IMG/VR virus record: IMGVR_UViG_2706794683_000007
Reading direction: 5' to 3' (one strand)
Length of the DNA stretch: 4,136 nt
From: a virus
Taxonomy: Duplodnaviria; Heunggongvirae; Uroviricota; Caudoviricetes
Shown here: positions 1,364 to 4,136 of the stretch, in pieces
How positions within the stretch are numbered: the first letter of the stretch is position 1
Layout of the letters: every line of letters begins with the position of its first letter
Notes under the pieces: generated by a model
The model's input: the letters and a program-made list of their open reading frames with translations, nothing else
The model's database searches: none
Told to the model about the DNA's origin: nothing
Position numbers and translations under genes: made by a program

Positions 1364-2050
1364 TCACTCCTTCTCTTCTTTACCGTAGTGGAGTTGACCA
1401 ATTTTGATAAGAGGGCGTCCCTGAGATTTGCGGTGTAGATTGGTATCGCGCAGAGAATACACACAGCCACAATATTCCTGCTGATAGAATTTTTCGCGCT
1501 TGCTGATTTCAATCATACGGGACGAGCCGCCCTGCTTGCGCCAGTTATAATCCCAGTACACCATGCCCGGATAATGCGCGACGGCTCGCCGCCCACAGTC
1601 GTTAACCTGCTGCATATTTTTCCAGCGTGAAATGCCCAGTGAACTGCTGATCACACTGAAACCATTTTCAGCGGCGTACAGCGCTGTCCGCTCAAAACGC
1701 ATGTCAAAACACATGGTGCAACGGATCCCTCGTTCGGGCTCCCATTCCATTCCTTTGGCTCGTTCAAACCAGTTGTCTGTGTCGTAATCAGCATCAATAA
1801 ACGGCACGCCGTGTTGTTCAGCAAAGCGAATATTCTCATCCTTACGAATTAAATACTCTTTCTGAGGATGAATGTTCGGGTTGTAGAAAAAGATGGTGTA
1901 GTCGATTCCCGAGGCCTGAAGCGCCTCCATCACCTCACCGGAACATGGAGCACAGCAAGAGTGCAGTAGTAGTTTGTTTGCCCCGTTTGGGAGCTCCAAT
2001 TTGGGCCGTTTGAAATCAGCAACTGTCATAAATATGTTTATTGGGGTCAT
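1364..2050 (-). CDS. queH: QueH-like (DUF208) putative epoxyqueuosine reductase / Fe-S enzyme homolog
   Basis: 228 aa ORF with [11 protein letters not shown] near the N-terminus (Cys32/33/36), CTMC (Cys111/114) and EYCGCVYS near the C-terminus (Cys194/196), which match my recollection of DUF208/QueH conserved cysteine motifs. There is no obvious SD before either the ATG at 2050 or the in-frame ATG at 2029, so the start is uncertain. Family call is from recalled motifs only. Confidence 0.7.
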
Positions 2051-2197
2051 AAAAATATCAAAGAGTGTAGCATTAGAACGGGGCTATCGGAAACAGATGT
2101 GTGACTGCTCCCCGCCCTTTCGGGTGGTCTCCTGATGATTTGAGGGTGCAGAAATCCCTCCGGTTAAGGATTAAATTTTTAACAGTGCTAAATTTAA

Positions 2198-2554
2198 TTA
2201 TTCAGTTCTGGATTTTGTCGCCCTGCGTATCCGCGCTTTCGCGTTACGCTCAATCTGTATCAGCTTTTCTATATTTCTCCGCCTTTCCTGTTCCTCCTGG
2301 CGCAATAGCCTTACATCATCTGCCAGTCTGGTTTCTCTTTTTGCCACAGAGAGCATCCAGTCAAACGGCTCCACAACCGCACCGCAGATTTTACAGCGGA
2401 CCTGACGCTCTTTTTCGTCAACCCGTACAGAGGCGTGATGGCAATATGGTCTTTCCGATGGCTCATAAAGAAAATTAACCTGATTACGAGGGTCATCCTC
2501 TTTTACCGGAAATAAAACGATATTGCTTAACTCATCTTCTGGTTTTATTTCCAT
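2198..2554 (-). CDS. Hypothetical small Zn-ribbon-like protein with basic coiled-coil C-terminus (118 aa)
   Basis: ATG at 2554-2552 is preceded by AAGGAGAGGAGC, a strong SD. Product starts MEIKPEDEL and contains C-H-H ... C-x-x-C (YCHHASVRVDEKERQVRCKICG) followed by an Arg/Glu-rich helical tail. The ORF track's longer form starts at 2611, where ATG abuts the upstream TGA (TGAATG); either start is possible. Confidence 0.7.
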   Translation of the reverse strand: MEIKPEDELSNIVLFPVKEDDPRNQVNFLYEPSERPYCHHASVRVDEKERQVRCKICGAVVEPFDWMLSVAKRETRLADDVRLLRQEEQERRRNIEKLIQIERNAKARIRRATKSRTE

Positions 2555-2611: not shown

Positions 2612-3034
2612 TCACAGTATCGCCTCCTGAAAATTACCCTGATAGAAAGCCAGTACACGCTGCATAGCTTCGCTCTTCCGGCACTCGCGACAGATTATAT
2701 TCAGGCGCCTGTCGTAGCGGCGTATTTCTCCGTCAGGTAATGACCAGATAAGGTCCGGATCAACAACAACCGGTTTCCTCACCTTTACTCTCGAGAGTTT
2801 TTTGCGGGCGCTTTGCCAGTCCTTGCGAGCCTGTTCAGACGGGAATAAGCCGTAGCCAGAATTATATACATCACCACTTGCGACCAGTTCTATGCATAAG
2901 CGACCGACAGACGCACGACTGATACCTGTTTCATCTGACAACTGCCGAATCGTGACCCGACCGTCCTGATGCACGAGTTCCACAATTCGCGTCTTCAGTT
3001 CTTCCCGCTGTTCGGGAGTAAAAGGTTTCGCCAT
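2612..3034 (-). CDS. Hypothetical phage protein with N-terminal helix-turn-helix / winged-helix-like segment (140 aa)
   Basis: ATG at 3034-3032 is preceded by CAGGAGGATTT (strong SD), 14 nt after the DnaC-like stop. The segment VTIRQLSDETGISRASVGRLCIELVASG looks like an HTH. The C-terminal half is basic and carries a CRECRK motif. Confidence 0.75.
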   Translation of the reverse strand: MAKPFTPEQREELKTRIVELVHQDGRVTIRQLSDETGISRASVGRLCIELVASGDVYNSGYGLFPSEQARKDWQSARKKLSRVKVRKPVVVDPDLIWSLPDGEIRRYDRRLNIICRECRKSEAMQRVLAFYQGNFQEAIL

Positions 3035-3048
3035 AAATCCTCCTGAAA

Positions 3049-3666
3049 CTACTTAACAACCCTCGAATGGCTAACATTCGGACGCCAGCTCTCCCAGTTA
3101 AAATTCACCCAGCGNNNNNNNNNNNNNNNNNNNNNNNNNNNNNNNNNNNNNNNNNNNNNNNNNNNNNNNNNNNNNNNNNNNNNNNNNNNNNNNNNNNNNN
3201 NNNNNNNGATAGCTGCCGCTAAGTGATTCTTCCCGGTACCAGGTTTTCCGCTGAACGCAAAATTTGTACACCCGGTCATCAGTTCATCGGCGATGGATTT
3301 CGCCTGGCTTAACGCGTATCGCTGGCCGTCGTTCTGCACCTGGTAATTCGCAAACGAGCATTTACGGTGCAACGGCTGGATGCCTGAGCGATTCAGAATT
3401 TTTTCCACCCGCAACTGGCGNNNNNNNNNNNNNNNNNNNNNNNNNNNNNNNNNNNNNNNNNNNNNNNNNNNNNNNNNNNNNNNNNNNNNNNNNNNNNNNN
3501 NNNATTCATTGGCGATGCTGTGTCGAATCACCTGCTCAGGTGTAAAACCCTGCTGACGGAATTTTTCCAGTTCCCGTATCGCCCCGTTAGCGCCCTGCTC
3601 CGTTCGAATCGGTTTTCGCAATGCCTGTCTGAACCGGACCCACTCATGCCAGAGTGTTTCCGGCAA
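3049..3666 (-). CDS. DnaC-like (AAA+, IstB/DnaC family) helicase loader, phage-type; interrupted by two N runs, 5' boundary unresolved
   Basis: Walker A FAFSGKPGTGKNHLAAAI is encoded at about 3208-3261. NRSGIQPLH...CSFANY and the C-terminal WVNFNW both parallel E. coli DnaC as I recall it (NRSGIRPLH, GKPGTGKNHLAAAI, WVIFNW). The ORF-track start at 3666 is a TTG, and the frame is open upstream to a stop at 3733-3735, so the 5' part may belong to the upstream replication gene. N runs at 3115-3207 and 3421-3503 are translated as X. Confidence 0.75.
   Translation of the reverse strand: MPETLWHEWVRFRQALRKPIRTEQGANGAIRELEKFRQQGFTPEQVIRHSIANEXXXXXXXXXXXXXXXXXXXXXXXXXXXXRQLRVEKILNRSGIQPLHRKCSFANYQVQNDGQRYALSQAKSIADELMTGCTNFAFSGKPGTGKNHLAAAIXXXXXXXXXXXXXXXXXXXXXXXXXXXXXXXRWVNFNWESWRPNVSHSRVVK
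3115..3207. other. Run of 93 N (unresolved or masked bases) inside the DnaC-like ORF
   Basis: Directly visible. It replaces the region where Walker B, sensor and arginine-finger motifs would be expected. Confidence 0.99.
3421..3503. other. Run of 83 N (unresolved or masked bases)
   Basis: Directly visible. It lies at the probable junction between the replication-initiator C-terminal region and the DnaC-like N-terminus. Confidence 0.99.
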
Positions 3667-3766: not shown

Positions 3767-3857
3767 GTAACGCTTTTTGATCCGTTTGTGTAACGCTGGC
3801 AGCGTTACCTTTTCGTTTCAGTTCGCGTATTTTTGTTACTCGCTCGTTTGTAACCGC
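3767..3857. repeat. Iteron-like repeat cluster and 19 bp palindrome; candidate phage replication origin inside the initiator gene
   Basis: CGTTTG/CGTTTC occurs at 3783, 3814 and 3845, exactly 31 bp apart. Associated GTAAC(C)GC / GCGTTAC motifs occur at 3767, 3790, 3802, 3835 and 3850. A 9+1+9 palindrome GTAACGCTGGCAGCGTTAC spans 3790-3808. Three GATC sites fall within 3731-3782. Confidence 0.25.
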
Positions 3858-4136
3858 CCGTTTTTTTTAGAGCTTTTTCCGTTATGACGTTCAAAGTTAG
3901 GTAGAGAAAGCCCTCCGTCATTTTCGACCAGCCATCCAACCTGAATTAACGCATCAGCAAAACCAGACATAAAAGTGATGCGATCTATTGCACTTTTTGT
4001 AACGCCGCGAGCGTTACAATCTGCATTACCGTCTATCATTTGTTGATCCGCCCATGCCCAGAAGCGAATAACCTGAGGTAGCCTGAGTTTAACGGACACT
4101 CCTTCCTGAAATAGAATGGCATCAGAAGGAGCTAAT
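3836..4136 (-). CDS. Phage replication-initiation protein, N-terminal domain (possibly DUF1376/YdaU-like); 5' partial
   Basis: ORF 3836-4099 (GTG at 4099) translates to MSVKLRLPQVIRFWAWADQQMIDG...GWLVENDGGLSLPNFERHNGKSSKKNGRLQTSE. The frame stays open upstream to the window edge (4136), and the SD-like AGGAAGGA abuts the GTG with no spacing, so the true start is probably outside the window. It sits directly upstream of a DnaC-like gene, as in Rac-type replication modules. Confidence 0.55.
   Translation of the reverse strand, partial: LAPSDAILFQEGVSVKLRLPQVIRFWAWADQQMIDGNADCNARGVTKSAIDRITFMSGFADALIQVGWLVENDGGLSLPNFERHNGKSSKKNGRLQTSE

Follow-up and report, generated by a model that had tools for sequence, protein, structure and literature searches.

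Two non-orthologous enzymes, QueG and QueH, convert epoxyqueuosine (oQ) to queuosine (Q) in tRNA, and both are reported from some streptococci (PMC12632869). QueG depends on cobalamin and [4Fe-4S] clusters, and in Escherichia coli and Salmonella the step was shown to require a cobamide (PMC4646009, citing Frey 1988). A survey of viral queuosine and 7-deazaguanine genes reported no homologs of QueA, QueG or QueH in the viruses analyzed (PMC6884629). Here we describe a queH gene on the minus strand of a 4,136-nucleotide stretch of Caudoviricetes DNA (IMG/VR record IMGVR_UViG_2706794683_000007; hereafter the window). The listing of its open reading frames (ORFs) contains an ATG-initiated frame of 228 amino acids at exactly 1364..2050, with CCAPC at residues 32–36 and CGC at residues 194–196, the latter within YCGCVYS. 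The frame and both motifs are thus as the initial annotation of this DNA had given them. We consider it probable that this is a functional, promoter-bearing QueH cargo gene, captured from an enterobacterial relative, which is predicted to give cobalamin-independent conversion of oQ to Q.

Identity and conservation of the protein

The conserved cysteine set of QueH (CCxPC...CxxC...CxC) binds a [4Fe-4S] cluster and an adjacent iron, and the enzyme reportedly needs no cobalamin. Pfam PF02677, the QueH (DUF208) family, matched the window protein with E = 1.9e-65 and 220.6 bits over profile positions 1–174 of 175; since the cutoff is 23.5 bits, the match lies far beyond chance. Consistently, crystal structures of Thermotoga maritima QueH (PDB 7lc5 and others) were matched over residues 27–203 with E = 5e-22, at a sequence identity to 7lc5 of approximately 30%. 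An AlphaFold model built on our second alignment (A2) had a mean predicted local distance difference test score of 95.7 and a predicted template modeling (TM) score of 0.91. This model superposed on 7lc5 with a target-normalized TM-score of 0.92 and a root mean square deviation of 1.3 Å over 179 columns. The matches that followed were distant enzymes of the adenine-nucleotide alpha-hydrolase fold, such as TtuA, with query-normalized TM-scores of at most 0.53. The NCBIfam release 20 hidden Markov models (HMMs) gave no match to the protein, although RefSeq names it QueH.

All seven cysteines conserved in the family are present, at C32, C33, C36, C111, C114, C194 and C196 in the numbering of the 228-residue form. 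Their conservation was assessed in an alignment of 60 diverse, near-full-length representatives, drawn at E values up to 1e-3 from 4,755 clusters formed at 50% identity. Each of the seven columns is at least 90% cysteine among these representatives, and the same columns are invariant in A2. The likeness to T. maritima QueH thus extends over the full-length domain, the cysteine positions (C9, C10, C87, C90, C169 and C171 in that enzyme), the fold and also the predicted reaction, a cobalamin-free conversion of oQ-tRNA to Q-tRNA. The two differ at the third cysteine of the motif, where T. maritima has Asp13 and the window protein has the cysteine of CCAPC. The CCAPC form occurs in 56 of the 60 representatives and is the family norm, with Asp13 as the exception. 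The PDB also includes C9S and D13N mutants of T. maritima QueH, which correspond to C32 and C36 here, suggesting that the depositors regard these positions as functionally important. The T. maritima enzyme differs further in its setting, as the window gene belongs to a prophage and occurs alongside QueG. Taken together, the profile score, the cysteine ligands and the modeled fold make it highly probable that the window gene encodes a genuine full-length QueH. The QueH/DUF208 assignment first made from the motifs is borne out both by the Pfam search, which covered nearly the entire profile, and by the retention in the window protein of every cysteine conserved in the 60-member alignment.

Comparison among phages points to strong constraint on the protein. 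All 83 copies found in phage context keep an intact 221-residue frame (the start codon is treated below) and all seven cysteines, and they comprise 19 nucleotide alleles but only 5 protein alleles. For allele pairs with a synonymous divergence (dS) above 0.02, the median ratio of nonsynonymous to synonymous divergence (dN/dS) was 0.020 at a median dS of 0.11, with a maximum ratio of 0.10. Variation fell at 13% of third codon positions and at 0.9% of first and second positions. This pattern of substitution clearly argues for maintenance of QueH by selection within phages.

Cassette boundaries, start codon and expression signals

The closest QueH proteins outside Escherichia and Shigella are those of Enterobacter hormaechei (92% amino acid identity), Scandinavium and Kluyvera (both 91%); those of Erwinia, Serratia, Proteus, Providencia, Pectobacterium, Rahnella and others share 79–87%. 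These chromosomal orthologs are of equal length to the window protein. The phage neighbors in the window, DUF977 and hok, stand beside queH only in loci of Escherichia albertii, Shigella flexneri and E. coli. Loci of the other Enterobacterales lack them, and the ORFs flanking queH there resemble ordinary chromosomal genes. In Serratia proteamaculans (5523–7637), judged from ORF N-termini alone, queH lies between yciI-like and tonB-like ORFs. In E. coli K-12 we take yciI and tonB to be adjacent, and if so, this interval could be the ancestral queH site, lost by Escherichia. Immediately upstream of queH in E. hormaechei (5283–5885) is a 200-residue ORF whose N-terminus resembles a tyrosine-recombinase or integrase fragment, and this 'chromosomal' copy may itself be part of a small island.

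At the DNA level, the window is homologous to the Scandinavium and Enterobacter genes from about 2093 or 2077 down to about 1357, that is, over the ORF and 50–65 nt upstream. Among phages, the comparison covered the best 80 of 188 IMG/VR stretches encoding a queH relative, which are 99–100% identical. Homology ends exactly at position 2100 in 61 of these 80 loci, marking the upstream boundary. On the other side, most of the 80 continue through hok and 13 break at 1201; hok itself, the usual downstream companion of queH, was detected in 66. The neighbors on both sides differ among phages. In the prophage of E. coli O157:H7 Z563 (11806–13816), the hok slot holds instead a Dcm (DNA cytosine) methyltransferase and a type II restriction endonuclease of the NgoMIV family, a replacement that marks the slot as a cargo hotspot. 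The boundary at 2100 and the restricted chromosomal homology together argue that queH is a discrete cassette, lying in a hotspot that the DUF977/Ren-like gene and the nin region enclose. Just outside the boundary, a GC-rich hairpin (CCACCC-GAAA-GGGCGG, one mismatch) occupies 2103–2130 on the minus strand, and three phage loci break inside it, at 2124. It was ruled out as a canonical terminator for want of a U-tract.

In these respects queH resembles the cargo genes ('morons') of the lambdoid ren/nin region: it is a sharply bounded insert between conserved phage modules, is variably present, co-locates with hok/sok or restriction–modification cargo and, from the conservation described below, may have a promoter of its own. 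It differs in that no flanking intrinsic terminator was detected at queH, and in that it encodes an enzyme of tRNA modification, not a factor for virulence, exclusion or defense. We propose that a lambdoid phage captured queH with about 70 nt of upstream DNA, including its promoter, from the chromosomal queH of an Enterobacteriaceae relative. The gene would then have become an autonomous moron, in most cases next to hok/sok, in the variable slot that separates the replication module from the nin region.

The start codon of the captured gene is likely the ATG at 2029 (M8 of the long ORF), which gives a coding sequence at 1364..2029 on the minus strand and a product of 221 residues identical to WP_012421537.1, 'epoxyqueuosine reductase QueH'. 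We prefer it to the ATG at 2050 because RefSeq starts the 100% identical gene at the equivalent position, and because the Enterobacter, Scandinavium, Kluyvera and Proteus orthologs start there too and lack the seven-codon extension. The seven in-frame codons at 2030..2050 on the minus strand are therefore probably not coding and would form part of the 5' leader. Public databases hold both the 221- and the 228-residue forms, the longer one in older GenBank records such as AAZ87471.1 of Shigella sonnei Ss046.

The ORF upstream on the same strand stops at 2198, which leaves 147 nt before the 228-codon frame. As had been noted at the outset, this gap has no clear Shine-Dalgarno (SD) site, and no AGGAG-like sequence precedes either ATG. 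Within it we identified a predicted extended −10 element, TGCTACACT, at 2064..2072 on the minus strand, with TG at 2072–2071 and the hexamer TACACT at 2069–2064. It implies transcription from near 2057 and a predicted AU-rich leader of about 28 nt without an SD. The case for this promoter comes from its conservation across species. In the phage, E. albertii, two Enterobacter species, Scandinavium and Kluyvera, TGCTACA(C/A)T is invariant and stands approximately 35–43 nt before the shared ATG, while the flanks have diverged. Of 80 genome loci, 23 have the pattern TGnTAnnnT at this distance, compared with 3.8 expected from shuffled sequences (maximum 11). Erwinia, Serratia and Rahnella have classical −35/−10 pairs at the same place, for example GTGACA-17-TAAACT. 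A −35-like hexamer read from the sequence, TTCCGA at 2087..2092 (minus strand), lies 17 nt upstream of the −10 hexamer, matches TTGACA at three of six positions and varies at 2091 among phage copies; with so weak and variable a −35, the promoter would rely on the extended −10.

The SD-less leader, too, is common to the closest chromosomal relatives, whereas more distant orthologs have GGAG-like sites. The cassette may thus have brought along an ancestral promoter and an SD-less, AU-rich leader. The possible 'own unusual expression signal' of the initial annotation was overstated: its simplest reading is an extended −10 promoter of the ordinary sigma-70 type with an SD-less leader, both probably inherited from the chromosomal queH of related Enterobacteriaceae. 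The −10 element stands at the same position in the chromosomal counterparts; what sets the phage gene off from them is its neighbors. Folding of the gap and leader as RNA (2000–2200, minus strand; z = −1.8) brought out no convincing element, the small GC hairpin at about 2110–2128 lacking a U-tract, and an Rfam search of the whole window at E up to 0.1 returned only sok/hok, with nothing in the gap.

Host pathway and alternative explanations

All 5,426 complete E. coli genomes carry queG, in agreement with the earlier statement that Escherichia uses QueG, and 5,425 carry queA-tgt; oQ-tRNA is therefore made in essentially every host, where QueG is at hand to reduce it. The usual pattern of the family, in which QueH replaces QueG, is not found in E. 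coli, where QueH is additional. The two enzymes act at the same pathway step on the same tRNAs (PMC4646009, PMC12632869). QueG (yjeS in E. coli) differs in having an unrelated fold, in using cobalamin and two [4Fe-4S] clusters, and in being a core chromosomal gene of every complete genome. Since the host already has QueG for this step, the sole biochemical novelty of the prophage gene would be independence from B12. To our knowledge, E. coli has no de novo cobalamin synthesis. In the proposed mechanism, host Tgt and QueA would supply the oQ substrate, for which host QueG needs a cobamide. QueH, dependent on [4Fe-4S] and iron but not on cobalamin, would convert oQ34 to Q34 in tRNA-Asp, -Asn, -His and -Tyr. 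This would open a B12-independent route to completed queuosine to the lysogen and, on induction, to the phage. None of the tRNAs whose genes were seen in the prophages (Gly, Thr, Arg and Ile) is a substrate for queuosine.

The best reading of the window gene is that it would modulate the queuosine status of host tRNA. That the promoter is used, that the lysogen expresses the gene, that the enzyme is active in E. coli and that it brings a benefit under B12 limitation are points that we infer; for expression in lysogens and a B12-related benefit, the odds seem slightly less than even. In its widest form, the proposal is that lambdoid prophages, expressing QueH from its own promoter, make queuosine completion B12-independent in about one-fifth of E. 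coli and Shigella strains. Where B12 is poor, or where btuB-deficient cells have lost its uptake, four tRNAs would then differ in their oQ/Q state, and decoding would change with them. We put this form forward tentatively.

Several observations weigh against a promoter-bearing, beneficial cargo gene. A consensus promoter and terminator scan of 900–2700 found no coding-strand sigma-70 site in the 147-nt gap and no terminators, and our proposal accordingly derives from cross-species conservation and not from that scan. The 9-nt −10 element is unchanged in 83 of 83 phage-context copies while 13 of 71 upstream positions vary, but invariance of such a block among phage copies alone is not significant (probability by chance approximately 0.16); it therefore only adds to the cross-genus conservation. 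In the absence of an SD before queH, its translation may be weak. Finally, queG is not known to us to have a strong phenotype in E. coli, which leaves the selective benefit unexplained. In a delta-metE background with cobamides, deletion of queG caused no growth defect (PMC11841063).

Other roles have to be set against queuosine completion in lysogens. The gene is co-oriented with the early-right operon and lies directly downstream of its replication genes with no terminator between, so read-through on induction is likely as well. The same arrangement would suit a QueH that serves the phage only in lytic growth, where early-right read-through would keep Q-tRNA matured and tune phage translation without lysogenic conversion, and the isolated, complete temperate phage HannyBb does keep queH. 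However, the promoter element of the chromosomal ancestor is still present in the cassette, which shares its slot with typical lysogen-expressed cargo (hok/sok and restriction–modification genes), and oQ and Q are not known to differ in their effect on decoding. We regard an exclusively lytic role as unlikely; expression in lysogens and use in lytic growth are not mutually exclusive. It could also be argued that queH is a non-functional passenger hitch-hiking with the prophage, as QueH duplicates the host QueG step and its gene lacks an SD. The selection data already contradict this: with 83 of 83 frames intact, every ligand cysteine kept and a dN/dS of 0.02 at a dS of approximately 0.11, a passenger is scarcely credible.

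The slot otherwise holds addiction and defense cargo (hok/sok and restriction–modification genes), which would fit a defense or counter-defense factor, for example one that alters the anticodon loop of Q-tRNA against tRNA-targeting toxins. PADLOC nevertheless gave no defense-model match for QueH or its zinc-ribbon neighbor, and for DUF977 only sub-threshold helix-turn-helix noise. Moreover, a protein so nearly identical to ordinary chromosomal QueH would be expected to catalyze the usual reaction, and no partner gene co-varies with queH, whose neighbors change on both sides; a defensive role is thus very improbable. Lower still in our estimation stands the suggestion of the initial annotation that the gene might act in 7-deazaguanine modification of phage DNA. 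QueH does belong to the queuosine/7-deazaguanine pathway, broadly the same pathway as that of the phage clusters of DpdA with FolE, QueD, QueE and QueC, and some phages modify their DNA with 7-deazaguanines (PMC6884629). These known systems, however, use preQ0-pathway genes and DpdA without QueA, QueG or QueH (PMC6884629), whereas the base on which QueH acts is by then part of a tRNA. An identity of 79–92% to ordinary chromosomal QueH also makes a change of substrate unlikely. The predicted partners did not appear either: queC, queD, queE, folE and tgt/dpdA are not annotated in the 40.7-kb stretch around the identical copy (L001, integrase to baseplate), the HannyBb early region, the O157:H7 Z563 prophage region or the plasmid record pNR3838_1, where record annotation rather than an HMM search of every ORF was consulted and each stretch is less than a complete phage genome. 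The DNA-modification idea is therefore unsupported, and we give it almost no weight.

Neighborhood, prevalence and significance

Pfam, PHROGs and Rfam matches, together with the RefSeq annotation of a 100% identical record, assign the other genes of the window and confirm the original placement of queH between replication genes and the hok toxin locus. All lie on the minus strand, which is the 'rightward' direction of the phage. Upstream of queH are a replication-initiator-like gene (3836–4099 and beyond), a DnaC/YdaV-like ATPase gene (3049–3666), the DUF977/Ren-like gene (2612–3034) and, directly adjacent, a zinc-ribbon protein gene (2198–2611; phrog_1621, 'unknown function'). The ATPase gene is partly masked by N runs at 3115–3207 (93 bases) and 3421–3503 (83 bases), and its translation has long X stretches. 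The zinc-ribbon gene encodes 137 residues with a CxxC...CxxC zinc-ribbon-like segment, for which the Pfam Zn_Ribbon_TF match is weak and sub-threshold. It was detected in 14 of the 80 queH phage loci, many of them short, and may be a separate, variable module. Downstream of queH, the sok/hok-leader RNA element (1131–1306; Rfam RF01794, 117 bits) is followed by the hok and mok ORFs (hok 981–1136, mok to 1193; Pfam HOK_GEF E = 1e-22, annotated hokD in RefSeq), a phrog_340 protein gene (444–731) and a NinB/DUF1367 gene (52–447). The RF01794 model (157 positions) matches the same strand as hok/mok, although Sok should run antisense to the leader of hok; what the model covers may be the leader region of the hok mRNA.

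Across E. coli, megablast detected queH in 995 of the 5,426 complete genomes (approximately 18%), in 985 of them at a query coverage of at least 80%. Almost every copy is the only one in its genome, lies on the chromosome and bears the annotation 'epoxyqueuosine reductase QueH'. At least 1,000 contigs are recorded with the exact 221-residue protein, under the name 'MULTISPECIES: epoxyqueuosine reductase QueH [Enterobacteriaceae]', while S. sonnei Ss046 and other older records name it a conserved hypothetical protein. The initial annotation had called a phage copy next to hok unexpected; the phage location beside hok holds, but with a RefSeq name and copies in 995 genomes the surprise was overstated.

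Phage resources treat the gene differently. The PHROGs family of this protein, phrog_3217, is labeled 'unknown function', and its 188-position profile aligns only to residues 41–228, past CCAPC. Evidently, many phage gene calls start at Met41 and lose the metal-binding motif; this may explain both the phrog_3217 label and the two overlapping 'hypothetical protein' calls in Escherichia phage HannyBb. This isolated, temperate phage is the only cultured one with a near-identical copy, where it is labeled 'hypothetical protein'. Searches of phage records returned a single record by megablast and 25 by tblastn, mostly short, unannotated 'Bacteriophage sp.' fragments from fecal metagenomes or oversized assemblies, which are presumed viral. 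The circular 94.5-kb 'plasmid' record pNR3838_1 contains a lambdoid early region with repressor, cro, replication genes, DUF977, queH, hokD, antiterminator and tRNAs; it could be a phage-plasmid, an excised prophage or a misassigned prophage. Literature searches combining QueH/DUF208 with prophage, phage, O157, Shigella or lysogen yielded no paper on this gene. The protein is thus already known and annotated, and its phage context is common yet apparently undiscussed in the literature searched.

What is new here is accordingly the context and not the protein: queH is a common cargo gene of lambdoid prophages in Escherichia and Shigella, strongly constrained and apparently equipped with its own promoter. 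Its presence in phages runs against the published statement that the viruses analyzed carry no Q-tailoring genes (PMC6884629). If the enzyme is active in lysogens, then whether E. coli tRNA bears Q or oQ when B12 is scarce would be a strain difference determined by phage, with relevance to tRNA modification, to the ecology of B12 in the gut and to the accessory genes of prophages. Such a role would be a case of lysogenic conversion acting on the epitranscriptome, and the published finding that viruses lack genes for Q-specific tailoring would need revision.

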